Shown one piece after another: positions 98 to 11,690 of a DNA stretch of 11,894 nucleotides; positions within the stretch are counted from its first letter, which is position 1; each line of letters begins with the position of its first letter. The notes below the pieces were generated by a model. That model was not told the origin of the DNA. It made no database searches and saw only the letters and a program-made list of their open reading frames with translations. The position numbers were made by a program, and so were the translations under genes. The stretch is from a bacterium (GTDB lineage: Bacteria > BMS3Abin14). The stretch spans positions 199,798-211,691 of the forward strand of contig CP070698.1 of the NCBI GenBank assembly GCA_020349685.1, in the 5' to 3' direction.

Positions 98-1312
98 TCA
101 CCCTGAACTTTCTGCTAGGGTCTCGTCGAGCGCGGCGAGGACGGAGTCCACCTCGATGTCCGATATCGTAAGAGGGGGGGTGAACCGCAGCGTGGTTTCA
201 GCCACGGCCGTCACCAGATAACCCTTCTCGAGAAGGGTTTGCACAAAAGGCGCCGCAGGTTGCGACAGCTCCAGGCCCATAAGGAGGCCGAGGCCCTTCA
301 CACCTTTGACCAGGGAGGGATATTTTTCCATCAGCTTTTCCAGGCCACCTCTAAGACGCTTGCCGGCGGCCTGGGCCCTGCGCGGCAGGTCTTCCGCCTC
401 GAGGATGTTTAATGTGGCCAGGGCCGCGGAGCAGGCGAGGGGGTTCCCGCCAAAGGTGCTCCCGTGGGTTCCGGGACCCAGGGCCGCCGCCAGGTCGCTT
501 TTCGCCAGGACGGCACCGATGGGAAATCCGTTGGCGAGACCCTTGGCGAGGGTCATGACATCCGGTTCGATCCCGTAGACCTGGTGCGCAAAGAGGGCCC
601 CGCACCGGCCCATTCCGGTCTGGACTTCGTCCACCATGAAGAGAACGTCCTCTTTCCGGCACAGGTCGGCGGCCTTGAGCAGAAAATCCCGGTCGATAAG
701 GTTCACGCCTCCTTCGCCCTGAACCAGTTCGACGAACAGCGCGCTGGCGCTGGGGAGGTGTCCCTCGAGGTTCTCGATGTCCCCTGGTGCTATGTGGACA
801 AAACCCTCGGGATAAGGCGAGAAGGCCTCAAGGTGATGTTTGGGGTCGGTGGCCGTAAGAGCCTTCATGGTCCGGCCGTGAAACGCCCCGTAAAAGCTGA
901 TGATCAGGTTCCGCCCGGCGCCATACTTTTCAAAGGATCTCTTGCGGGCAAGCTTGATCGCAGTCTCGGAGGCTTCGGCCCCGCTGTTGCAGAAAAAGAC
1001 CCTGTCCAGGTTCGTCAGGGAGGTCAGTCTTTCGGCGAGGATCGCCTGCACGTCACTGTAGTACCAGTTTGATACGTGAACCAGGCGTCCGGCCTGGTTT
1101 ACAATGGCCCGGGTCACTCCCGGGTGGCAGTGCCCAAGGTTGCAGGTGGCGATGCCGGCGACGAAGTCGAGATATTCCTTACCGTCCGTGTCGCGCAGGC
1201 GGCTGCCCCGCCCGCTTGTGAAGACCACAGGGAACTGCCGGTAGTTGGGAAAGAGAGAGCTGCCGGCAGCGTCCAGATATTCGCGGGTGCTCTTTCCATA
1301 TACCCCGGTCAT
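98..1312 (-). CDS. argD: Acetylornithine aminotransferase (class III PLP-dependent)
   Basis: 404 aa with [38 protein letters not shown], the PLP-lysine motif [13 protein letters not shown] and [13 protein letters not shown] overlap with argB. Confidence 0.93.
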
Positions 1313-2190
1313 GGCAGGATCTCCGTTCCGATGCCTGTCTGGGTGAAGATCTCCAGGAGGACTGCATGGTTGACCCTTCCGTCAACGATGTGGACTTTGG
1401 AAACGCCCCCATCGAGGGCCGAGATCGCCGCCTCCACCTTGGGGATCATCCCCCCGTGGACGACCCCGGCGGCAACCATGCTGTCGAGCCGCTCCCTGCC
1501 GATGGAGGAGACCAGTTCGCCCTTCTCATCCGTGATTCCGGGTACATCGGTCATCAGGACAAGCTTTTTCGCCCTGAGCGCAGCGGCAAGGGCCCCGGCG
1601 ACGGAGTCGGCATTGATGTTGTAGGTGTTTCCATCGACGTCGACGCCCACGGGCGCGATGACGGGTATGAAATTGCCCTCATCCAGCCGATGGATCACTT
1701 CCGGATGAACGGAGATGATCCGCCCCACCTTTCCGGTATCGATGATCTCGGGGGGGCCGTCACCCCCTGGCGACTCGTGGATGAGAAGCTTCTCGGCGAA
1801 GAACAGGCCCCCGTCCTTGCCGGTCAACCCTACGGCCTTTCCACCGTGTTTCTGGATAAGGGCCACGATCTCCTTGTTCACCTTGCCGCCCAGGACCATC
1901 TCCACGACATCCATGGTCTCGTCGTCGGTGACCCTGTGTCCGCGAACGAACTTTGACTCCTTGCCCATCTTTTCGAGAGTCTTCCCGATCTGCGGTCCTC
2001 CGCCGTGGACCACGACAGGTTTGAGGCCGACATAGCGGAGCAGGATGATGTCCCGGGCGAAATTGGACCGCAGGTCCTCACTGACCATGGCGCTGCCGCC
2101 GTATTTGATGACGACTGTTTTCCCCGTAAATTCCCTTATGTAAGGCAGGGCCTCGAGCAGGATGTCCGCTTTTTTGATAAGTTCTTTCAT
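1309..2190 (-). CDS. argB: Acetylglutamate kinase (NAGK)
   Basis: 293 aa with [25 protein letters not shown] and GGMIPK. The N-terminal [11 protein letters not shown] helix and C-terminal LLEIFT..GIGT are typical of the arginine-inhibited hexameric type. Confidence 0.96.
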
Positions 2191-3746
2191 GTCGCCACCT
2201 TGCTCTTCAACCAGTTGAGCTCCTTCACTCTCTGCCTGACCTCCTGGTTGGCCTCCTCCAGCTGCTTGTTCGTCTCCACGACCTCGTCGATGCTCTTGAT
2301 CAGGTTCTGGTATAGCCAGGCCTGTTTGATGGCCATGGACGCCGGGGGAGAAACGGCTTCGAGGATCTCTTTATCCCAGTCATCAAAGGTAAGGTTCTCC
2401 TCCTTATTGTACACGGCGAGCACGCCGAGGACTTTGTCACCGGAAAGCAGGGGCGTCGCGGCGATGTTTCTGGGCGTGATACCCTTGGGGAAATCCGCCG
2501 CGACCTCCACACCGCTGTCGCCGGCTATTGTGTTTTTGATGACCACCTTTCCATTCCTGAGGACCGTTGAGATGACCCCGCTTCCCACGGGAACAGGCTC
2601 ACTGGATTTTTCCACCTGGTCCTCGGGGGCGACGTGTTCGATGTGGATCTTGTTTCCCCCCGGGTCCGAGAAGGCGAGGATGCCGCAAGTGGCCCTCAGA
2701 CCGGTCATGACCTTGCCCAGCAGGGCTTTGTATATCTGAGGCGGGTCCACAGTGGACACGAGCGTCTCGACGATCCCGTTTATGAACTGGAGCTTGAGTT
2801 TTTCCCTCTCCATCCTCTTCATCATGAAGATGTTGGCCACAGCCATGGACATCTGATTGGCGAAGGTGTTGAGGATGGCCAGGTCGCCTTCCGTAAACGG
2901 CTTCCTGTCCTTCTTGTCGTTGGCTGTGATCACACCGATGACCTTGGTGCCGCACAGGAGAGGCGTCACGATAAAGGACGAGGACTCGTATTGCCTTGTA
3001 TACTCGTTGGTCAGACCTCTCGTTTCCTTTGCCGCGTTCTCCACAAGAAAGGGCACTCCCTCCCTGACCACCCGCCCGGCGATGCCCTGGTTAACGGGCT
3101 GGCGGATGTTGGGGATCTTGCTCGGCAGGATCCAGTTGGACTTGGCCATGACGAGCTCTTTGCCGTCGCGGCTCATGAGCATCAGGGAGACCTTCTTGGC
3201 ATCGAGCACCTCAGAGATGAGATCGATGGATCTGCTTAAAAAATCGCTCTCTTTAAGAACGTCCTCCGGGGGCAGATCGCCCTCCTCGATGTGGGTCAGT
3301 TCGCTTGTCTGCTTTTCGAGCATCTGCAGTCTCGAAACCTGATGGTCTATGACCTCCTGGAGGTGTTTTTTCTCCAGGAGGTGCCTGATCACGATAAGAA
3401 CGTCCTCGACCTTGACGGGTTTGTTCAGGAACCATGCCGCCCCTCTGCTGAGGGCTCTCTGGGCGGACTGTCTGTCCTCTTCCCCAATGATCATCAGGAC
3501 GGGTGCCTTGGGCTGGAATTTGCGAATGGCAATGAGGGTGTCGAGCCCGGACAGCCCGGACAGCCTGTCCGCAAGGAAGATGATACCGATGTTTTCCTGG
3601 TTGCGTACCGCGGCGATCCCCTTCTGCCCGTCGTTCGCTTCCTGAACCTCGAAACCCTCGTTGGTGAGGATACCCTTGAGCATCTGGCGGCTGGCATGGT
3701 CGCTGTCTATTATTATCGCCCGGTTCATGAACTTACTTACCTCCAT
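2187..3746 (-). CDS. Signalling protein: atypical receiver domain, two GAF domains and a C-terminal coiled coil, no output domain. The true start may be ATG at 3728.
   Basis: Residues ~8-125 have the receiver pattern (IIIDSD..., GAAWFLNKP). Two GAF repeats follow ([10 protein letters not shown]...SFIVTPL...VIGVI..NDK...F and [10 protein letters not shown]...IAATPL...[10 protein letters not shown]...F). TAATG overlap with hslU and ATGA overlap with argB. A GGAGGT lies 10 nt upstream of the ATG at 3728. Confidence 0.88.
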
Positions 3747-5095
3747 TAGAGTATGTAACGGCTCAGATCCTCGTCTCCGACCACTTCGGCCAGTTTGCTC
3801 TGGACCGTGTTCTGGTCGATCACGATCTCGTCGTCGGTGAGATCGGGGGCCTGAAAGGAAATGTCTTCCAGCAGTTTTTCCATGATCGTGTGCAGCCGTC
3901 TCGCTCCGATGTTCTCGGTCCTGGTGTTGACCTCTTCGGCCATATGCGCGATGGCCTCCACGGCGTCCGGCGTGAAGGTGAGCTTGAGTCCCTCGGTCCG
4001 GAGCAGCTCCATGTACTGGAGGATCAGCGCGTTCTCCGGTTCCGTCAGGATGCGCACAAAATCGTCCCGTGATAGAGGGTCGAGCTCGACGCGTATGGGG
4101 AACCTCCCTTGCAGTTCAGGGAGGAGATCCGATGGTTTGCTTCCGTGGAAGGCCCCCGCGGCGATGAACAGGATGTGATCGGTTTTCACCATACCGTGCT
4201 TGGTTGTGACGGTTGTTCCTTCAATGATAGGCAGAAGATCCCTCTGCACCCCTTCGCGGGACACGTCGGGCCCCTGGGTGGTGCTGCGCCCGCTGATCTT
4301 GTCGATCTCGTCCAGGAACACGATGCCGCTCTGCTCCACCCGGGAAATGGCTTCGGTGGTGACATTTTCCATATCGATGAGCTTGGCCGCTTCCTCCTGG
4401 GCCAGGATCTCCAGGGCTTCCGGCAGCCGTACCTTGCGGATCTTTTTCTTACGCGGGAACAGGTTGCCCATCATGTCCTTCAGGTTTATGTCCATCCCTT
4501 CCGTTCCGGGGGCGTTGAAGATCTCGATAAAGGGCGTGGCTCTCTCTTCAACCTGGATCTCCACCTCTCTCTCGTCCAGCTGGGAATTGCGGAGCATCCG
4601 GCGCAGCTTTTCCCTGGTTTCAACGCTCGGAGGCGTTCCCTGCCCCTCTTCCGAGCCTGGAGGCCGGATGGCGCTCCTGGGCAGGAGAAGATCGAGGACC
4701 CGTTCCTCCGCGAGCATCTCGGCCCTTTCCATGACCGACACGACCTTTTCTTCCTTGAGCATCTTGATGGCCAGTTCCACGAGGTCGCGAACAATGGATT
4801 CCACGTCGCGTCCCACGTACCCGACCTCGGTGAATTTTGTGGCTTCCACTTTGATAAAAGGTGAGTCGGCAAGGGATGCCAGGCGACGGGCGATCTCGGT
4901 CTTTCCCACTCCGGTGGGTCCCATCATGATAATGTTCTTCGGGGCGATCTCGTCCCTGAGTTCCTTGGGGACCTGCTGCCGCCGCCACCGGTTCCTCAGG
5001 GCTATCGCAACGCAACGCTTCGCCTTGTCCTGACCTATGATGAAGCGGTCAAGGCTGTCGACGATCTCGCGTGGTGTGAAGTTTTTCTGGGGCAT
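3746..5095 (-). CDS. hslU: ATP-dependent protease ATPase subunit HslU (ClpY)
   Basis: 449 aa with TPREIV, Walker A GPTGVGKT, pore loop GYVG, Walker [24 protein letters not shown] and C-terminal DLSRYIL. Confidence 0.98.
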
Positions 5096-5103
5096 AAGCT
5101 ATA

Positions 5104-5138
5104 ATTCCAAATTCCAGATTCCAGATTCCAGATTTCTG
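5104..5138. repeat. Heptamer tandem array (ATTCCAG)n
   Basis: ATTCCAA-ATTCCAG-ATTCCAG-ATTCCAG-ATTTCTG read directly. It ends 8 nt upstream of the hslU ATG. Confidence 0.9.
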
Positions 5139-5206
5139 TTAAAGATAAAATCCCATTTTCAAGATCCTGAAGAGAGTTGTCACTCTAAACAAATCATATT
5201 TTATCC

Positions 5207-5276
5207 AGACCTTAAACCCTAGACCCTAGACCCTAGACACTAGACACTAGACACTAGACACTAGACACTAGACACT
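5207..5276. repeat. Heptamer tandem array (AGACMCT)n, 10 units
   Basis: AGACCTT-AAACCCT-AGACCCTx2-AGACACTx6 read directly. It lies 4 nt past the hslV stop codon. Confidence 0.97.
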
Positions 5277-5280
5277 GCCT

Positions 5281-5808
5281 CTATTCCAGTTCTTCTATCG
5301 TGATCTCCTCATTCGTGTAGACGCAAATCCTGGCGGCAATGCCCAGGGCCTCCTTCACCACCTCGGCTGCTCCCATATTGGTGTGGTCCAGCAGCGCCCT
5401 GGCGGCGGCGCTGGCGTAGGGGCCGCCTGAGCCGATGGCCAGGGCCCCTCCCTCGGGTTCGAGCACATCCCCGGTTCCGGAAATGAGGAAAAGGCTCTCT
5501 CGGTCGGCCACTGCCATCAGGGCCTCCAGCCTGCGAAGCACCCTGTCCGTCCTCCAGTCCTTGGCCAGTTCCACCGCCGCTCTCGACAGGTTCCCCTGGT
5601 GCTGCTCGAGTTTCTTTTCAAAACGCTCGAAGAGGGTGAACGCATCCGCTGTGGATCCCGCGAATCCCGCCAGGATCTTTCCCTGGTAAAGGGTGCGGAC
5701 CTTTCTGGCCGTGTGCTTGATCACCGTATCGCCGATGGTGACCTGGCCGTCGCCGCCCATGGCAACTTTACCGTCACGTCGGACTGCCAGCACGGTGGTC
5801 CCTTTCAT
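5281..5808 (-). CDS. hslV: ATP-dependent protease peptidase subunit HslV (ClpQ)
   Basis: C-terminal 175 aa of the 5281..6471 ORF: [50 protein letters not shown] at 5808 overlaps the xerC TGA (ATGA), with a G-rich RBS upstream. Confidence 0.97.
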
Positions 5809-6743
5809 AACCGACCCCCCTTTCGTTCTGATCTGGGATGGGACCTGTCGTAGACCTCCAGAAGCCTGTCGAGGGTGACGTGGGTGTATCGCTGGGTCGT
5901 CTGAAGGCTCTCGTGTCCCAGCATCTCCTGAATGGCCCGAAGGTCGGCGCCGCTGTCGAGAAGGTGGGTGGCGAAGGTGTGCCTGATGACGTGAGGGCTG
6001 ATCCTCGTGTCCAGGCCGCATTCCCGGAGCCTGTTTTCCAGGCGCTTCTGGATCCCCCGGACGCTGAGCCGGTCCCCATGCCGGTTGAGGAATACGGGCG
6101 CGCCGTGCTCCGTCGCCGGCCATCGACCGGTTACCTTCAGGTACTCGAGGAGGCGGCCTGAAGCCCTCGTGCCAAGGGGAACGATCCTCGTTTTGTTGCC
6201 TTTGCCCCGGATTCGTATGACCTGCCCTTCCTGATCCCAGTCGCCGGTGTTGAGGCCGGCGAGCTCGCTGACCCTGATCCCGGAAGAATAGAAAAGCTCC
6301 CAGATGGTCCTGTCCCTGATGTCGATAGGGCGGTCCCCCGAGGAGCCGTCCAGGAGGGCGGTAACCTCCTCGAGGCTCAGAAATCTCGGGTTGTTCTTTC
6401 GAGCCTTGGGTGTGGGGACGGAATCGCAGGGGTTGTTGTCCAGGACACCCTCCCGGACAAGATATCGGCACAGGGACCTGACCGCCGAGACCTTTCTCGC
6501 CATCGTCGACCGGGCGAGCCCCCTTCGGAACAGGTAGCCGATGAAGGATCGCACCGAGTCCGGGCTTTCCGGCGGGAGCTTCTTCTCGTCCAGGTACTGG
6601 AAGTACTCGTCAAGATCCCTTCTGTAGGCCGAAACGGTATTGGGAGATGAGCCCCGGACCTTCTCCATGTACAGCAGGAATTCCGGAAGCTTTTGCCTCG
6701 CGGATCCAGAAATTGTGGTGGAACCCTGAGATCGATCCGTCAT
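5805..6743 (-). CDS. xerC: Tyrosine recombinase XerC (XerC/CodV type)
   Basis: 312 aa with N-terminal [12 protein letters not shown] and the full catalytic set: SSGIRVSEL (R), GKGNKTR (K), SPHVIRH (HxxR), MLGH, TTQRYTH (Y). Position between trmFO and hslV favours xerC over xerD. Confidence 0.9.
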
Positions 6744-6827
6744 GAGAAGTCACCCCGCCCTCATCCATCCGAAACAAAAATAATAGGAGTTTTGGAGGGT
6801 ATTGTCCAGAGGGGAGAGCGTGACCTG

Positions 6828-6859
6828 AGCACGCAGCACGCAGGACGCAGCACGCAGCA
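6828..6859. repeat. Heptamer tandem array (AGCACGC)n, left arm of an inverted pair
   Basis: AGCACGC-AGCACGC-AGGACGC-AGCACGC-AGCA read directly. Confidence 0.95.
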
Positions 6860-7038
6860 GGAAAAATTTCATCTATGATCCAGTGCCCAGACGGGTGCTG
6901 TTTATTTAAAGCTGTGAAAAGCACATTAATAAATGGAATGGCCGGTTTGAGAGGGGATCATACGATTCTTTAAAAAAGACAGTGATATTATCGAAACGGA
7001 TTTTTCCTGGATATCATGCAATTTGCCGGATTTTGATC

Positions 7039-8376
7039 TTATTCCGCGTGCTGCGTGCTGCGTGCTGCGTCCTGCTCTTCCAGCCACTCCCCCATATCCC
7101 TCAACGCCCTCTCTGCCAGCATCCGCCGTTTCACGTCCTTCTTCTGCTTCGGGTCGGGCAGAGGGGGCAGGAGACCGAACTGGGCGTTAACCGGCGTGAA
7201 GGGCGAGACCCCGGTATCGGTGAGTTTTCTCAGGATCGCCCCTGTCATGGTGGTTTCCGGTGGAGGAACAGGCTGGCGACCTGCCAGGAGACCAGAAATG
7301 TTAAGCCCCGCTAAGAGGCCGCTCGCCGTCGATTCGACGTAGCCCTCCACACCGGCTACCTGACCGCAAAAGAAGATCCGCGGATCCTTACGGAACCTCT
7401 GCGCAGTGTCCAGCACCGAAGGGGCGTCGATGTAGGTGTTCCGGTGTATGGTGCCGAGGCGCTCGAAGGTCGCGCTGCCCAGGCCCGGGATGGTCCTGAA
7501 TATCCGCTCCTGATCCGGAAAGCGCAGACGGGTCTGGAAACCCACCATGCTGTAGGAGGTAGCCGCCCTGTTCTCGGGTCGCAGCTGGATCACGGCATAG
7601 GGTCTTTTGCCGCTTCTAGGATCGATCAGTCCCACGGGTCTCAGGGGCCCGAAGGCCAGGGTCCTCTCCCCCCGGGATGCGAGCTCCTCGATGGGCATGC
7701 AGGCCTCGAAATAGCGTGCCTCCTCGAATTCGTGGGGTTTTAGCGGATCGGCTGATCTTAAGGCCGATACCAGGGACTCGTACTGGCTCCGGTCAAGGGG
7801 GCAGTTGACATAGGCCCCGGAGCCGGGGTCCTGGTAGCGGTCCTGAACAAACACCTCGTCCCACGAGATGGTGTCGGCCTCCACGATGGGGGCGATGGCG
7901 TCATAGAAAAAAAGGGATTGTGTTCCCAAAAGGCTCTGGATGGTATCGGCCAGTCCGCCCGAGGTCAGCGGGCCCGAGGCGATGAGGACGAAGCCCTCTT
8001 CGGGGAGGGTCGTCACTTCCTCCCGGACGACCTGAATGAGAGGCGACCGGCCGATGAGATCCGTCACCGTGCGGGCAAATTCGCATCGGTCAACGCACAG
8101 GGAGGACCCGCCGGGGATCGCCGTCTTAAGGGCTGTATCCAGGATCAGGGACCCGGCGAGGCAAAGCTCCTCCTTGAGGAGGCCCGAGGCGCGGTCCGTT
8201 CTTAGTGACTTGAGGGAGTTGCTGCAGACCAGTTCAGCCAGATCGCCGGTCCGGTGGGCCGGTGATGGGACGTCGGGGCGCATCTCGAAAAGCCGGACGG
8301 CAAATCCCCTGAGCGCGATCTGCCACGCGGCCTCGCATCCGGCGAGGCCGCCGCCGATCACGTTAACCAGATCCAT
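7039..8376 (-). CDS. trmFO: Methylenetetrahydrofolate--tRNA-(uracil-54)-methyltransferase TrmFO (Gid)
   Basis: 445 aa with the FAD-binding motif VIGGGLAGCEAAWQ, AELVCSNS, FFYDAIAP, YFEACMPIE, GPLRPVGL, MVGFQTRL, HRNTY and GVEGYVES. Confidence 0.97.
   Translation of the reverse strand: MDLVNVIGGGLAGCEAAWQIALRGFAVRLFEMRPDVPSPAHRTGDLAELVCSNSLKSLRTDRASGLLKEELCLAGSLILDTALKTAIPGGSSLCVDRCEFARTVTDLIGRSPLIQVVREEVTTLPEEGFVLIASGPLTSGGLADTIQSLLGTQSLFFYDAIAPIVEADTISWDEVFVQDRYQDPGSGAYVNCPLDRSQYESLVSALRSADPLKPHEFEEARYFEACMPIEELASRGERTLAFGPLRPVGLIDPRSGKRPYAVIQLRPENRAATSYSMVGFQTRLRFPDQERIFRTIPGLGSATFERLGTIHRNTYIDAPSVLDTAQRFRKDPRIFFCGQVAGVEGYVESTASGLLAGLNISGLLAGRQPVPPPETTMTGAILRKLTDTGVSPFTPVNAQFGLLPPLPDPKQKKDVKRRMLAERALRDMGEWLEEQDAARSTQHAE
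7046..7075. repeat. Heptamer tandem array (GCGTGCT)n, right arm of the inverted pair, inside the trmFO 3' end
   Basis: GCGTGCTx3-GCGTCCT-GC, the reverse complement of the 6828-6859 unit. Confidence 0.95.
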
Positions 8377-10621
8377 CTCCCTGGACCTTGTTCTGGCACT
8401 CCTTGTTCGCGCAGGTCAGCACGTCGCCCCTTTTCGTCGAGCGCCGCGTCATGACCGGGAATTCGCAGACCGGACATGGCGTCTGAACCGGTTCGTCCCA
8501 GACCGCGAAATCGCACTTGGGATAGGACGAACAGCCGTAGAAGGTCTTTCCTTTCCGGGTCCGGCGGACGATGAGCTGACCGTCACAGCCCTCCCGTGGA
8601 CAGGCTATTCCGGTGGTGAAGGGCCTTGTTCCCTTGCAGTCGGGATAGCGCGTGCAGCCGAGGAAAGGACCCGTGGGACCCTGTTTGACGGTCATGGGGC
8701 CATCGCACTCGGGGCACTTTTCGGGGCGCTCTTCCCCTTTGGTCAGGTGGAATTTTCCGTCGGAGGTCCGCTCGAAATCCGATGTGAAGCGGCACTCGGG
8801 GTAGCCGCTGCATGCCAGGAACTCCCCGGTCCTGCCGCTCATCTTGACCATGAGAGGCTTTGAGCACTCGGGGCAGGTGAGGTCCGTCTCACCCCAGGTG
8901 AAGTCCTCATCCTTTTCTTCCACGGATATCAGTTCCGAGGTGAAGGGATCGTAAAAAGCTTCCAGGACCTGCAGGTAGGTCTTGTCCCCCTCTTCCACCA
9001 GGTCAAGTTCATCCTCAAGGTGGGCGGTGAACTGGACGTCCACCAGGCGGGGAAAGCGGCTGACGAGGTAGTCGTTGACTCCCAGCCCCAGCGAGGTGGG
9101 GAAGAACCTTCTCTTGTCCTCCATGACGACGTATTTTCTCTTCCTGATGGTGTCGAGGATGGCGGCATAGGTGCTCGGCCGCCCGATCCCCTTCTCCTCC
9201 ATGGTCTTGACAAGGGTCGCTTCCGTGTACCTCGGAGGAGGCTGTGTGGTCTTCATCTGAAGATCCACTTCGACAAGCCCGAGCTCCTGTCCCGCTTTGA
9301 GGGGGGGCAGGGTGACCTCCCCGTCGTTGTTGTCGTCCTTTCCTTCCTCGTAAAGGGCGGTGAAACCCGTAAAGAGGATCCTTTGTCCGGACGCGGTGAG
9401 ACCGATGGTACCGGCAGTGATCTGAACTTTCGTTCGCTCGATCCGCGCGTTCTCCATCTGGGATGCCAGGAACCGTCTGTAGATCAGCTCGTACAGGCGG
9501 GCCTGGTCCCTGTCGAGATAGGATGAAACATCCTCCGGTCTCAGATCCGGCTGACTGGGCCTGACTGCTTCGTGGGCATCCTGGGCTCCCTTCCGGTTCC
9601 GGTAGTGGCGGGGGGAGGCGGGGACGAACTCCTGGCCGAAGTGACTTGCGATCTGTTTCCGTGCTGTTTCAACGGACTGGGCCGACACCCTGACGGAGTC
9701 TGTCCTCATGTAGGTGATGAGGCCCATGGTGCCCCGTTCACCGAGGGCGATGCCCTCGTAGAGCTGCTGGGCAACCATCATGGTCTTCTTGGCCGTGAAC
9801 CTCAGTTTTCGGGCGGCCTCCTGCTGCAGCGTGCTGGTGATGAAGGGGGGAGGCGGCGACTTTGCACTTTCCCTGACTTCGAGGTCGTTGACGATGTGCG
9901 CTTCCCCCTCCAGAACAGATCTGATCTTCAGGGCCGTGGCCTCGTCCGGTATGCGGCCGTTCTTCAGTGAGGTCTTCCCATCATCCAGGGAAGTGACCCG
10001 GGCCTTGAGGACGGGTGGCTGATCGGCGCCAAGGATCGAATGCACGAGCCAGTAGTCCTCGGGTATGAAGGCCTGGATCTCCCGTTCCCTTTCACAGATG
10101 AGCCGAAGGGCTACCGACTGCACTCGCCCCGCGGACAGACCTCTCTGGATCTTCTTCCAGAGCACCGGGCTGAGTTTGTATCCGACGAGCCTGTCGATGG
10201 CCCTGCGGGCCTGCTGGGCGTGGAATTTCCGGTCGTCAAGTTTTCCGGGTTTATCAAGGGCCTTGAGGATCCCGCTCTTGGTGATCTCGTGGAAAAGGAC
10301 TCTGTAAACCCTGTCGTCGGGGAGCTTGAGGTGCCGGCTGATGAGATACCCGATGGCCTCGCCTTCGCGGTCGGGGTCGGTAGCCAGCAGGACCCTTTCC
10401 GCCTCCCTGGAGGCCTTGGAGATCTGCCCCAGGACCTTCTTCTTGCTGGGGATGACCATGTTCTTGAGGGTAAACTCCTTCTCCGGATCAACGGCCAGCT
10501 CCTTGGCGGGCAGGTCGATGACGTGCCCGTTGGATGAGAGAACGTCGTAATCCTTTCCCAGGATCCTTCCGATGGTTTTTGCCTTTGTGGGTGATTCGAC
10601 GATGATGAGATCTTTGCCCAT
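8363..10621 (-). CDS. topA: DNA topoisomerase I (type IA) with C-terminal zinc ribbons
   Basis: 752 aa with TOPRIM motifs LIIVESPTKAK and ATDPDREGE, SAGRVQS, catalytic LITYMRTD, AQDAHEA and GIGRPSTYA. Four C-terminal Cys4 repeats (CPEC..CSGYPEC and others). Overlaps the trmFO start by 14 nt. Confidence 0.98.
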   Translation of the reverse strand: MGKDLIIVESPTKAKTIGRILGKDYDVLSSNGHVIDLPAKELAVDPEKEFTLKNMVIPSKKKVLGQISKASREAERVLLATDPDREGEAIGYLISRHLKLPDDRVYRVLFHEITKSGILKALDKPGKLDDRKFHAQQARRAIDRLVGYKLSPVLWKKIQRGLSAGRVQSVALRLICEREREIQAFIPEDYWLVHSILGADQPPVLKARVTSLDDGKTSLKNGRIPDEATALKIRSVLEGEAHIVNDLEVRESAKSPPPPFITSTLQQEAARKLRFTAKKTMMVAQQLYEGIALGERGTMGLITYMRTDSVRVSAQSVETARKQIASHFGQEFVPASPRHYRNRKGAQDAHEAVRPSQPDLRPEDVSSYLDRDQARLYELIYRRFLASQMENARIERTKVQITAGTIGLTASGQRILFTGFTALYEEGKDDNNDGEVTLPPLKAGQELGLVEVDLQMKTTQPPPRYTEATLVKTMEEKGIGRPSTYAAILDTIRKRKYVVMEDKRRFFPTSLGLGVNDYLVSRFPRLVDVQFTAHLEDELDLVEEGDKTYLQVLEAFYDPFTSELISVEEKDEDFTWGETDLTCPECSKPLMVKMSGRTGEFLACSGYPECRFTSDFERTSDGKFHLTKGEERPEKCPECDGPMTVKQGPTGPFLGCTRYPDCKGTRPFTTGIACPREGCDGQLIVRRTRKGKTFYGCSSYPKCDFAVWDEPVQTPCPVCEFPVMTRRSTKRGDVLTCANKECQNKVQGDGSG

Positions 10622-10832: not shown

Positions 10833-11690
10833 TCATTTCAACGAGAACATCCCGCCCGGATCGCGGCGGACAAGCCCATCGAGCTCCAACTTTGTTAGTT
10901 GGGCCAGCACCTGGGAGAGGGGCATTCCCGTGGCCGCTGCCAGTTCCTCGGGAAGCCGGGGGCCGGGTTTGAGCGCCCTTGCAAGGGGATCTCTTTCCGG
11001 GTTTTTGTCCCGACAGGTGAGGTGAGGTCCGAGAAGGTGATCCAGCTCCAGGAGGCGCAGAATGTCCTCCCCACCGCACACCGGCGCGGCCCCATCCCTC
11101 AAAAGGGCGACAGGCCCGGCCGAAAGGGGGTCGTCGGCCCTGCCGGGCACGGCCATGACCTCCCTCCCCTGGTCCAGGGCCCAGCGGGCGGTTATCAGGG
11201 AGCCGCTGCGCCCCCTGGCCTGGACCACCACCACCGCCAGGGAAAGGCCGCTGATGACCCGGTTGCGGGAGGGAAAATTCCTCGGCAGCGGGGGAGTGCC
11301 GGGCGCGAACTCTGAGAGGATGGCCCCGCTGGCGATGATGCGCTTCCTCAGTTCTTTTGACCCTCTTGGGTAATCGATGTCGAGCCCGCAGCCGATCACG
11401 GCGATGGTCCTCCCGCCCCGGTCCAGAGCTGCTGTGTGGGCTTCGGTGTCTATGCCCCGCGCGAGTCCGCTGACGATGGTCACCCCGCTGGCGGCCAATT
11501 CACCTGAAATGAGGCGCGCCATGTGCCGCCCGTAGGGCGTCGGGGTCCGGGATCCGACCACAGCCACCGAGAGCTGATCTTCCCTGGTCGTCTGTCCCCT
11601 GACATGCAAACACGGGGGAGGGTCCTTTATGCGGTCAAGGAGTTGAGGGTAATCAGGGTCTTCGCGGTGAAGGCGGCTGTCACCCCTCAA
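10833..11690 (-). CDS. dprA: DNA-processing protein DprA (Smf), short form
   Basis: 285 aa with YPQLL..I.DPP, VAVVGSR, IVSGLARGID, FPSRNRVISGLS, SGSLITA and GREVMAVPG, plus a C-terminal winged-helix-like LTKLELDGLV. TTG start with GGAG 7 nt upstream. Confidence 0.95.
   Translation of the reverse strand: MRGDSRLHREDPDYPQLLDRIKDPPPCLHVRGQTTREDQLSVAVVGSRTPTPYGRHMARLISGELAASGVTIVSGLARGIDTEAHTAALDRGGRTIAVIGCGLDIDYPRGSKELRKRIIASGAILSEFAPGTPPLPRNFPSRNRVISGLSLAVVVVQARGRSGSLITARWALDQGREVMAVPGRADDPLSAGPVALLRDGAAPVCGGEDILRLLELDHLLGPHLTCRDKNPERDPLARALKPGPRLPEELAAATGMPLSQVLAQLTKLELDGLVRRDPGGMFSLK

Follow-up and report, generated by a model that had tools for sequence, protein, structure and literature searches.

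A conserved family of signalling proteins, present in many uncultured bacteria, is encoded directly behind hslU, and one of its members lies between hslU and argB in the stretch of bacterial DNA analysed here (11,894 nucleotides, hereafter the window). Positions 2187-3746 on the minus strand hold a genuine gene for a REC-GAF-GAF-coiled-coil protein, which we call RGG. It belongs to an orthologous family with conserved length, and is a conserved cytoplasmic signalling protein without catalytic or DNA-binding output. The C-terminal coiled coil is proposed to be its output element, and we tentatively favour, with somewhat less than even confidence, the reading that RGG is a ligand-gated dimeric switch acting via this coiled coil, and that its partner is more likely HslU than ArgB.

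Gene structure and genomic context

The longest open reading frame for RGG (2187..3746, 519 aa) starts at 3746. The ATG at 3728, 17 nt past the hslU stop, is probably the true start, since its equivalent is the start in all full-length orthologues and the database gene call (P0002, 513 aa) agrees with it. A Shine-Dalgarno-like motif stands ahead of this codon (Table 1), purine-rich motifs precede the equivalent start in the orthologues, and no Shine-Dalgarno-like sequence was found in the window ahead of the first ATG. The sequence-only reading had the gene coupled to both neighbours by overlaps, and both overlaps are literally present. The one with argB is real, with the argB ATG at 2190-2188 and the RGG stop TGA at 2189-2187 (ATGA). 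The one with hslU, in which the stop TAA (3748-3746) runs into the ATG of the longest frame (3746-3744) as TAATG, is probably not used and an artefact of picking the longest frame, because the orthologues and the database call start at the ATG at 3728, behind the GGAGG.

RGG is part of a compact co-directional row, xerC-hslV-hslU-RGG-argB-argD, whose first gene encodes a recombinase scoring 317.6 with the XerC family TIGR02224, below the cut-off of 335. The genes trmFO, topA and dprA lie on the same strand, and none of the genes on this strand is a kinase gene, as had been noted from the sequence. ArgB carries 23 residues ahead of the kinase fold (Pfam AA_kinase begins at residue 24), an extension that we take to be the mark of the arginine-sensitive hexameric type. 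A small fraction of the window's sequence words occurred in two metatranscriptome runs. The exact matches among their contigs were two short ones only, at 2800-2978 (X1) and 1977-2127 (X2), the remaining contigs being relatives of 85-90% likeness, and no contig of the two runs bridged the hslU-RGG or the RGG-argB junction.

Table 1. Features of the RGG locus in the window.
Feature	Position	Strand	Basis and remarks
argD (acetylornithine aminotransferase)	98..1312	-	TIGR00707, 445.3 bits; overlaps argB end by 4 nt
argB (N-acetylglutamate kinase)	1309..2190	-	TIGR00761, 263.7 bits, cut-off 151; ATGA overlap with RGG
RGG CDS (REC-GAF-GAF-coiled-coil)	2187..3728	-	513 aa + stop; probable start, from orthologue starts and database gene call
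C-terminal helix / parallel-type coiled coil	2190..2381	-	residues 450-513; model helix, heptads
GAF2	2382..2744	-	residues 329-449; Pfam; least conserved; NKx5Fx3DxE; PDB matches to PDE5/6 GAFs
GAF1	2829..3248	-	residues 161-300; Pfam, conservation; motifs QYxSxSFxxxP and NDKx5Fx3DL
REC domain, degenerate	3375..3728	-	residues 1-118; PF00072; residue tally; model strand ends
GGAGG, Shine-Dalgarno-like motif	3740..3744	-	11 nt ahead of RGG ATG 3728; read from sequence
hslU (AAA+ unfoldase of HslUV protease)	3746..5095	-	TIGR00390, 639.7 bits, cut-off 362; directly upstream of RGG
hslV (peptidase subunit)	5281..5823	-	NF003964, 291.6 bits; start approximate
XerC/XerD-type tyrosine recombinase	5805..6743	-	NF001399, 280.7 bits, cut-off 279; heads xerC-hslV-hslU row

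Domain architecture and coiled coil

In the 519-aa frame, Pfam places Response_reg at residues 11-118 (PF00072, E = 2.9e-18, 66.5 bits, cut-off 30.2) and GAF stretches at 169-303 and 334-473. The AlphaFold2 model (pLDDT 82) has the alternating strands and helices of a receiver, with long helices (107-144, 280-325 and 450-512) joining the domains, so that the layout reads (pseudo-)receiver, helix, GAF1, helix, GAF2, six-heptad coiled coil. In a Foldseek search the best matches of the model were the dimeric tandem-GAF modules of PDE6/5/2 and CyaB2, as well as the REC-GAF part of the dual-sensor kinase 6oap. By Pfam and Foldseek, RGG has the two GAF folds and the long joining helices of a tandem-GAF protein.

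No HisKA, HATPase_c, GGDEF, EAL, HD, PP2C or HTH family was detected in RGG (Pfam, E <= 0.01), and after the coiled coil the protein ends, without a His and without HisKA/H-box or HATPase_c. Pfam and the model therefore uphold the architecture read from the sequence, namely a receiver, two GAFs and a coiled coil with no output domain, and the relatives agree with it. The full-length matches at E <= 1e-20 all have 497-523 aa and lack an output domain, while the one-stretch matches of a profile search have 497-516 aa, except for a 668-aa protein that has a third GAF. The near relatives thus give no sign of a recent truncation, and RGG qualifies as an output-less REC-GAF regulator in the descriptive sense, having REC and GAF and no output either in itself or in its near relatives.

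The C-terminal helix (450-512) is a single one in the model and contains six unbroken heptads (residues 473-511 in the 513-aa numbering), with Y, I, N, N, V and K at the a positions and L, V, L, V, L and V at the d positions, including Asn at two successive a positions. Both the helix and the heptads bear out the coiled coil first proposed. It carries the family signature K-x-x-W-L-x-x-N-L-x-x-S-x-D and is the part of RGG with the highest identity between the window protein and other clades (0.36), followed by GAF1 (0.33), REC (0.27) and GAF2 (0.21).

The receiver domain

For the receiver residues, we compared 59 sequences from the window's clade with 26 from other clades. In CheY the acidic pair after strand 1 is D12 and D13; the window RGG has D8-S9 there, instead of two acidic residues, and the second position is occupied by S55/N3/A1 in the 59 window-clade sequences, whereas DD is found in 25/26 of the other clades. 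The column of the canonical phospho-acceptor Asp holds A57/S2 in the window's clade and Asp in 26/26 of the others. In the window RGG the aligned residues are A53-D54, and an Asp stands one place past the canonical column in 54/59 members of its clade. At the Thr/Ser switch position, at the end of strand 4, the window has I81 and its clade M32/I20/L4/V3, compared with T11/S4/A8/V3 in the other clades, where five sequences have a Thr one column later. The Lys after strand 5 and the following Pro are kept (K103-P104 in the window; K55/R4 and P59 of 59 in its clade), and the Lys is also present in 26/26 of the other clades.

As the key phosphorylation residues are missing, the receiver of the window's clade is probably a pseudo-receiver, and it is in this clade that the degeneracy lies, the receiver being canonical in the other RGG clades. 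The shifted Asp (D54) sits right at the end of strand 3 (47-53) in the model, and could still take a phosphate. With the second acid, the Thr/Ser and the canonical-column Asp missing, the absence of a kinase gene from the window matters little for this clade.

The GAF domains and candidate ligands

After the coiled coil, GAF1 is the part of RGG best conserved between clades. Its best match to a curated family is the GAF of NifA (E = 1.1e-17), and its PDB sequence matches include the GAFs of Lcd1, PtsP and Nlh1/2, the top one being a cAMP-binding GAF. GAF1 is also the better conserved of the two GAFs. The GAFs of NifA and PtsP sense 2-oxoglutarate or glutamine. The NKFDE signature of cyclic-nucleotide GAFs (N-K-Xn-F-X3-D-E) does not predict the ligand, and the NKFDE-like motifs of GAF1 and GAF2 (Table 1) are both near it, neither being exact. 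The scarcity of class III cyclases, the only class covered by our search (PF00211), weakens the case for a cyclic nucleotide as a shared ligand, since no such cyclase was found in genome G000 (82% complete) and only 1/5 near-complete genomes of the phylum has one.

Family distribution and linkage to hslU and argB

RGG was searched with two patterns, one of them drawn from the coiled-coil signature. It is present in 16/16 species genomes of the window's one-family phylum, in which the frame is open throughout and full-length wherever the assembly allows; it is broken by the assembly only, through an N gap in G004 and over two contigs in G008. The seemingly REC-less copy in G004 (CP070682.1) is likewise an assembly gap, with an N run directly upstream, and not a natural truncation. 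Full-length members occur in 5/285 genomes of other families, and 41 metagenome loci were found with a narrow alignment. From 85% down to 26% identity the length stays at 497-523 aa.

The notion that RGG is the degenerating relic of a hybrid histidine kinase, functionless after loss of the kinase core, is hardly credible. In an alignment with MadS, RGG stops near the point at which a kinase dimerisation/His domain would start, and its distant giant relatives are REC-(GAF)n-HisKA-HATPase kinases. However, these giants are only 22% identical to RGG, the C-terminal helix has a conserved signature of its own, and the open frame and constant length, in our sequence comparisons, would bring this notion close to refuted.

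The gene hslU lies directly upstream of RGG in 14 of the phylum's 15 other genomes (in the remaining one an N gap interrupts the assembly there), in 5/5 of the full-length members in other families, in 3/3 further genome contigs and in 28/28 informative metagenome loci, where -3 to 43 nt separate the two genes. Downstream, argB follows directly in 28/32 informative metagenome loci and in 3/5 distant genomes, with 0 to 3 nt between the genes or a small overlap in most lineages and longer spacers of 90-435 nt in G006, L079, L085 and L103. In L105, L107, L108, G016 and G033 RGG still stands behind hslU without argB downstream, and the genes that follow it there have nothing in common. No copy away from hslU was found among the 285 other-family genomes and the metagenome loci searched. 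The linkage is thus very strong, and scattered homologues, which would have spoken against a functional tie, did not appear. Between hslU and argB, G064 encodes a protein of 309 aa that has no recognisable GAF; its receiver is 31% identical, and a short stretch matches the beginning of the coiled coil (E = 0.001).

It is possible, if unlikely, that the neighbours are not targets at all, and that RGG works in a two-component or second-messenger pathway elsewhere, its place behind hslU in a stable housekeeping operon being a frozen accident like that of codY (see below). RGG might then pair with a histidine kinase, for example the paralogous REC-GAF-HisKA-HATPase protein, via its GAFs and coiled coil, or might serve as a phosphate or ligand sink. 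GAF2 and the coiled coil resemble the sensor of GAF kinases and the first part of their dimerisation helix (MadS-family match of residues 318-513 onto 28-214 of 434). A REC-GAF-HisKA-HATPase paralogue does exist in the same genome as the window RGG (L005 in G000, the only one whose domains were scanned), and paralogue-like second matches, in frames of 510-643 aa, occur in 14/15 other genomes of the phylum (not in G013). In addition, the canonical receiver of the other clades needs a kinase, and kinase-core matches are found within 5 kb in 0/41 family loci; similar output-less REC-GAF clusters also occur in many phyla of the Protein Atlas, although these are leads only. Against such an accident, the position is kept in every informative locus at 26-33% identity to the window RGG, even though RGG evolves much faster than its neighbours, and an accident should have scattered some copies away from hslU.

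The hslU-argB junction

In 14/35 sampled genomes that lack RGG, hslU is directly followed by argB, which confirms the adjacency that the sequence-only reading had stated for other genomes. Since this adjacency is common without RGG, RGG is an insert at an existing, old junction. The insert had been thought lineage-specific; it is indeed an insert, but not one of a single lineage, as the HslU lineages that it accompanies number at least six or seven. In a quick tree of HslU the RGG-linked sequences are interspersed among the others in about seven groups; support for the deep branches is weak, and the insert could still have a single origin. In two more sampled genomes, genes of the carbamoyltransferase family (argF or pyrB, not told apart) stand behind hslU.

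A further gene found at this place is codY, directly behind hslU in the Firmicutes genome G238. We know of no functional tie between CodY and HslUV. In Staphylococcus aureus codY also lies in an operon behind hslU, according to a passage of PMC12795462. Homology of RGG with CodY was considered and rejected, as a profile comparison with true CodY gave a probability of 0.8% and Pfam detected neither the CodY GAF (PF06018) nor the CodY HTH (PF08222) in the window RGG. A weak CodY-GAF match in the distant member L024 (E = 6.5e-4, below the cut-off) reflects general GAF likeness.

Proposed mechanism and partner

Gene order suggests that RGG may control HslU or ArgB by direct contact. RGG would form a parallel dimer, like other tandem-GAF proteins, and a small molecule bound in a GAF would alter how the helices of its spine pack or are in register. 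The input in the window's clade would be the ligand and not phosphorylation; in the other clades, because their receiver is canonical, phosphorylation by a kinase encoded elsewhere may be a second input. The conserved coiled coil would then relay the signal by contacting another protein.

The partner may be ArgB, with RGG as an allosteric, PII-like regulator of N-acetylglutamate kinase that binds a metabolite by GAF1, but we consider this quite improbable. The model for it is PII acting on NAGK in cyanobacteria and plants: RGG would relieve or strengthen feedback inhibition by arginine, the cue being a nitrogen or carbon metabolite. Consistent with it are the ATGA overlap and the short spacers in most lineages, the frequency of argB directly downstream, the N-terminal extension of the window ArgB, and the resemblance of GAF1 to the GAFs of NifA, PtsP and Nlh1/2. 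On the other hand, the top PDB sequence match of GAF1 binds cAMP and is not a 2-oxoglutarate sensor, and ArgB identity to the window protein is similar with RGG (49-58%) and without it (54-62%). The hslU-argB adjacency is older than the insert, so the nearness of argB needs no functional reason, and the broken rows (L102 and the five loci listed above) keep RGG with hslU, not with argB.

HslU would be the likeliest partner, with RGG as a ligand-gated regulator or adaptor of HslUV, comparable to RssB and CpdR. We prefer it over ArgB only because RGG keeps its place after hslU even in loci that lack argB downstream. Several observations weigh against HslU. Gene order can mislead, and an old, stable hslU-argB junction may simply carry the insert along; codY occupies the same place in Firmicutes; no feature distinguishes HslU beside RGG from HslU without RGG in the alignment blocks viewed; and the tight ATGA overlap fits ArgB as partner equally well, although this coupling is not universal. 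Complex prediction of full-length RGG with HslU from alignments scored 0.00 in two runs without controls, which counts neither way.

A more far-reaching version, which we regard as rather improbable, is that HslUV has in RGG its first dedicated regulator or adaptor, gated by a ligand, and that RGG couples proteolysis to the arginine/nitrogen economy. A nitrogen or carbon signal (2-oxoglutarate or glutamine) on the NifA/PtsP-like GAF1 would switch the coiled coil and alter degradation by HslUV, and RGG would be produced alongside the enzymes of the first committed steps to arginine. If so, the widespread hslVU-argB linkage would mark a real coupling of proteolysis with arginine and nitrogen metabolism, and CodY behind hslU in Firmicutes would be an independent solution to the same need.

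Comparison with known systems

HslUV is, to our knowledge, the sole widespread bacterial AAA+ protease without a known adaptor or dedicated regulator, and the output-less REC-GAF regulators are, as far as we know, a large class without one known target. The invariant genomic partner of RGG makes both gaps experimentally addressable. The hslU-argB adjacency is documented here as common, and we found no discussion of it in the literature searched, nor any paper on the RGG family or on such an HslUV adaptor. If the neighbours are not its targets, RGG would be, beside codY, a clear case of a sensor gene that has kept its place in the hslVU operon despite very deep divergence.

The closest class is that of the output-less REC-GAF regulators, which have the same receiver and GAF domains and, like RGG, no recognisable output; we found no member with a known target in the literature searched. 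RGG differs in being a single orthologous family that has two GAFs, a conserved coiled coil and a fixed place behind hslU, and in having a degenerate receiver in one clade. In the census of Galperin and co-workers (PMC5847659), output-less REC-GAF and REC-PAS-GAF regulators form a class whose members are expected to signal either through dimerisation or through contacts with targets yet to be identified.

The tandem GAFs of PDE2/5/6 and CyaB2 are the best structural matches (9cxi, 3lfv, 3ibj and 1ykd; Foldseek E = 2e-18 to 4e-16) and share the GAF-helix-GAF-helix layout and NK...F...D motifs in both GAFs. Their helices lead to a catalytic domain, whereas in RGG the helix is the end of the protein, and with so few class III cyclases there is no obvious case for a cyclic nucleotide as shared ligand. 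The dual-sensor kinase 6oap (REC-GAF-HisKA-HATPase) has a REC and a GAF like those of RGG (sequence E = 8e-26; Foldseek E = 4.7e-16), which in contrast lacks the His-phosphotransfer and ATPase domains.

The likeness to CodY is one of position only, a GAF-containing metabolite sensor directly behind hslU in a xerC-hslV-hslU row. CodY has a winged-helix DNA-binding domain, is without the receiver, second GAF and coiled coil of RGG, and shows no specific sequence kinship with it. PII-NAGK, in which a small signalling protein controls ArgB by contact on a metabolite cue, is an analogy only, as the PII fold is unrelated to RGG. For the mode of action that we tentatively favour, with HslU as partner, the nearest parallels are the ClpXP adaptors RssB and CpdR, in which a receiver without enzymatic or DNA-binding output steers a AAA+ protease. 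The comparison concerns the mode of action and not homology beyond the receiver, for which the RssB family NF045505 is among the matches (E = 5.7e-11). RGG would differ from them in having HslUV as candidate protease, and has GAF sensors where a PP2C-like domain stands.

Gene order and junctions

All substantial genes of the window lie on the minus strand in a single row, in which the gene for the REC-GAF-GAF-coiled-coil protein, here called RGG, stands between hslU and argB. Sizeable gaps are found only at 5096-5280 (185 nt, hslV to hslU) and 6744-7038 (295 nt, trmFO to recombinase), and each holds one promoter-like site.

Genes and sites of the window, with the support for each assignment
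Feature	Positions	Strand	Support or remark
dprA	10833-11690	-	
topA	8363-10621	-	
trmFO	7039-8376	-	Passes NCBIfam cut-off
Promoter-like site	6808-6780	-	10/12 consensus match only
XerC/D-type recombinase	5805-6743	-	Passes only the subfamily model: 280.7, just above the generic tyrosine-recombinase cut-off of 279; 317.6, below the XerC equivalog cut-off of 335.15; overlaps hslV start by ~19 nt
hslV	about 5281-5823	-	Passes NCBIfam cut-off
Promoter-like site	5183-5155	-	9/12 consensus match only
hslU	3746-5095	-	Passes NCBIfam cut-off
RGG	2187-3746	-	Longest ORF (519 aa); Pfam
argB	1309-2190	-	Passes NCBIfam cut-off
argD	98-1312	-	Passes NCBIfam cut-off

The first ATG of the RGG ORF (3746-3744) shares one base with the hslU stop (3748-3746), and no Shine-Dalgarno-like motif was seen before it in the window sequence. 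We take 3728, 17 nt after hslU, as the probable start, because the full-length orthologues all use the start that corresponds to the second ATG (MNRAIIID...), the database gene call has 513 aa (P0002), and GGAGG lies at 3744-3740. Of the coupling to both neighbours proposed in the sequence-only reading, the ATGA linking the RGG stop with the argB start (2190-2187) is retained; the TAATG with hslU is probably not used. In orthologues the hslU-RGG spacer ranges from -3 to 43 nt, and the RGG-argB junction is in most lineages the same ATGA or a few-base spacer, widening to 90-435 nt in genome G006 and loci L079, L085 and L103. Judging from this spacing, hslU, RGG and argB are likely co-transcribed. 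No noteworthy terminator-like or promoter-like site was found on the minus strand at these junctions, the one weak terminator-like match (3261-3245) lying inside RGG; two RNA libraries with traces of the region yielded only two short exact contigs, none bridging a junction.

Domain anatomy and family extent

Pfam places a receiver (11-118) and two GAF stretches (169-303 and 334-473) on the 519-aa ORF and, at E <= 0.01, no family of kinases, cyclases, phosphodiesterases, phosphatases or DNA-binding proteins. This domain content, together with the identities of the neighbours (NCBIfam), bears out the original description of an output-less REC-GAF-GAF protein between hslU and argB. The AlphaFold2 model (16-row alignment, mean pLDDT 82, pTM 0.48) has the order receiver, helix 107-144, GAF1, helix 280-325, GAF2 and a single helix 450-512. 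Foldseek matches it to the dimeric tandem-GAF modules of PDE6/5/2 and CyaB2, and to the REC-GAF part of the dual-sensor kinase 6oap, a placement with which a profile search of PDB sequences agrees. In the last helix the sequence shows six heptads without a break, and Asn occupies two a positions in a row. Such heptads are typical of parallel dimeric 'signalling' helices, which normally lead into a catalytic domain, whereas RGG ends at this helix.

GAF2 and the last helix (318-513) align to 28-214 of the 434 residues of a MadS-type kinase (sensor and first part), the window's genome has a REC-GAF-HisKA-HATPase paralogue (L005), and 14/15 other genomes of the phylum, all but G013, have a second match that looks like a paralogue, in a frame of 510-643 aa. 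These likenesses make the RGG family look like an old derivative of REC-GAF-HisKA-HATPase-type kinases that has lost its kinase core. The paralogue, a hybrid kinase of 570 aa (L005:1483-3195, plus strand; about 401140-402852 of contig C1), might pair with RGG.

In the genome collection the window's phylum consists of one family of 16 species, all 16 of which carry the RGG gene, the orthologues being 41-82% identical and 502-513 aa long; that RGG is a functionless remnant seems to us very improbable. A word-indexed search brought up 66 proteins with E <= 1e-20, annotated at source only as 'GAF domain-containing protein'; all full-length ones have 497-523 aa, and anything shorter is a fragment at a contig end. 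The exhaustive profile search returned mostly giant multi-GAF kinases, scoring via many stretches, and its full-length matches in one stretch (P0007, P0063, P0117, P0147, P0183 and P0203) have 497-516 aa. The only full-length relative found with anything past the helix is P0204, a metagenome protein of 668 aa with a canonical receiver and a third GAF after the coiled coil, and giant REC-(GAF)n-kinases with a similar beginning are merely 22% identical. Close relatives thus carry no full output domain, whose presence in them the sequence-only reading had named as the sign of a recent truncation; judged by these sequences, RGG is a family and not such a truncation. A receiver-less copy in G004 (CP070682.1, a 'chromosome'-level MAG) was rejected as a natural form: an N run in the assembly (L033:5746-6000), directly upstream of RGG, cuts the gene, annotated by NCBI as a partial protein, and removes the receiver part and hslU.

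Between the window's RGG and the other clades, identity is highest in the coiled coil (0.36) and GAF1 (0.33), followed by the receiver (0.27), GAF2 (0.21) and the first linker helix (0.18), and the coiled-coil signature K..WL..NL..S.D was one of two family-finding patterns in both collections. In genome G064 the gene between hslU and argB (L144:13-942, plus strand) codes for a protein of only 309 aa. Its receiver shares 31% identity with that of the closest RGG lineage, a GAF cannot be recognised in it, and a stretch of 24 residues towards its end matches the beginning of the RGG coiled coil (E 0.001, two-sequence comparison). The protein may be a reduced family member, and it gives a weak but suggestive hint that receiver and C-terminal helix are the indispensable parts.

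Conservation of the neighbourhood

In the phylum the order is hslU-RGG-argB-argD wherever contigs allow: among the other genomes, hslU lies directly upstream of RGG in 14/15, the fifteenth having an assembly gap, and argB downstream in 14/15, where the remaining contig ends. Three genome contigs labelled Desulfuromonadales or Deltaproteobacteria show hslV-hslU-RGG-argB at 31-33% identity, and five of 285 genomes of other families (G016, G033, G169, G172 and G202) have a full-length RGG, always directly behind hslU and three times followed by argB-argD. Among 49 metagenome loci, 41 hold family members and eight are partial domain matches to other proteins; where flanking DNA suffices, hslU is directly upstream in 28/28 and argB within 214 nt downstream in 28/32 (exceptions L102, L105, L107 and L108), counts that overstate independence, as many loci are near-copies forming about six groups by identity. 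The genes downstream of RGG in the argB-less loci are unalike: one is a radical-SAM gene on the opposite strand, another encodes a VWA protein, and others encode unknown proteins. The invariant neighbour of RGG is hslU. ArgB as the partner of RGG would fit the tight overlap of the two genes, but argB has been lost from RGG's side in several lineages, and we consider this improbable; HslU is preferred because RGG never leaves hslU.

Two genomes of one further family encode a REC-GAF protein (528-aa frame) ~5 kb upstream of hslU on the same strand (G142, C59:36549-37544 and hslU C59:30041-31405; G297, C32:6566-7564 and hslU C32:51-1421).

The junction itself was examined in the 35 best-scoring HslU matches outside the window's family and without full-length RGG, a sample ranked by HslU score that does not show which phyla are involved, and from which G068 was left out, its downstream stretch being judged short. 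There argB follows hslU directly (15-173 nt) in 14/35 (L135, L137, L138, L140, L143, L145, L149, L150, L154, L157-L160 and L163) and after one or two other genes in two (G158, G064), an aspartate/ornithine carbamoyltransferase-family gene follows in two (L155, L156), codY in one (G238), and unrelated genes in the rest. This supports, and goes beyond, the adjacency named in the earlier reading: the hslU-argB junction is widespread and older than the RGG inserted in it. We know of no explanation for the widespread linkage of hslVU to arginine genes. In a quick HslU tree, whose deep branches are weak, RGG-linked HslUs form about seven groups interspersed with RGG-less ones, which leaves room for a single origin with many losses.

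The receiver of RGG

We tallied the five positions that define a phosphorylatable receiver in the window's clade, i.e. the window and 58 homologues from the database, each 495 aa or longer, grouped by likeness to the window and not by taxonomy.

Residues at the five receiver positions
Position	Window's clade (59)	Other clades (26)
First acidic residue	D/E in 59/59	D in 25/26
Second acidic residue	S55/N3/A1	D in 25/26
Canonical phospho-acceptor column	A57/S2; Asp one place later in 54	Asp in 26/26
Thr/Ser switch position	M/I/L/V in 59/59	T11/S4/A8/V3; Thr in next column in 5
Receiver Lys	K55/R4	K in 26/26

Because the metal-binding Asp and the switch Thr are missing, normal phosphorylation-driven signalling is unlikely in the window's clade, whose receiver is probably a pseudo-receiver. 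In the AlphaFold2 model the shifted Asp directly follows strand 47-53, so that with a shortened loop it may still lie in the pocket. There is indeed no kinase gene in the window, as had been pointed out, but this matters little for a clade with a probable pseudo-receiver; a kinase core was found in the flanks of 0/41 metagenome RGG loci.

Possible mechanism and partner

RGG would be a dimeric switch: a ligand bound by a GAF domain would send a signal down the helices to the C-terminal coiled coil, and this coiled coil would contact a partner protein; in clades with a canonical receiver, phosphorylation may provide a second input. With HslU (HslUV) as the partner, this is our best explanation of the observed anatomy, conservation and gene order, although we hold all its steps together only tentatively, at somewhat less than even confidence.

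Among curated families GAF1 is nearest to the NifA GAF (E 1.1e-17), and among solved structures, compared by sequence, to the cAMP-bound Lcd1 GAF (1.1e-8) and the PtsP GAF (2.6e-7), with NifA-like Nlh1/2 GAFs also among the nearest; GAF2 is nearest by sequence to PDE5/6 GAFs. A class III cyclase domain, the only class searched, was not found in the window's genome and turned up in just 1/5 of the phylum's near-complete genomes, and this scarcity makes a cyclic nucleotide less likely as the shared ligand. As the GAFs of NifA and PtsP sense 2-oxoglutarate or glutamine, a metabolite of nitrogen or carbon status is, by analogy, a reasonable lead and no more.

Comparison with known systems

REC-GAF proteins without output form a class listed in a response-regulator census, which gives their targets as unknown (PMC5847659), and the Protein Atlas has many similar clusters, which we regard as leads only. 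Four things are new: one orthologous family whose coiled-coil end is conserved has been delimited, it holds a fixed position in the hslVU-argBD row in deeply separated lineages, one of its clades has a probable pseudo-receiver, and the hslU-argB junction that underlies its position is documented; in titles and abstracts of the literature we found nothing on any of these four. The parts of RGG are unsurprising, but it offers a rare and directly testable handle on two open questions, the regulation of HslUV and the role of output-less REC-GAF proteins.

The target of RGG could also lie elsewhere, its position being merely frozen, as for codY; this has a precedent in the Staphylococcus aureus operon xerC-hslUV-codY (PMC12795462), and we regard it as rather unlikely, though likelier than ArgB as the partner. 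The gene behind hslU in G238 (L133:81-860, plus strand, 80 nt away) is a true codY, with CodY GAF (E 7.4e-82) and CodY HTH domains, in the same position as RGG. Kinship of RGG with CodY was rejected, since the profile comparison gave a probability of 0.8%, and the likeness between the two is thus one of position behind hslU only.
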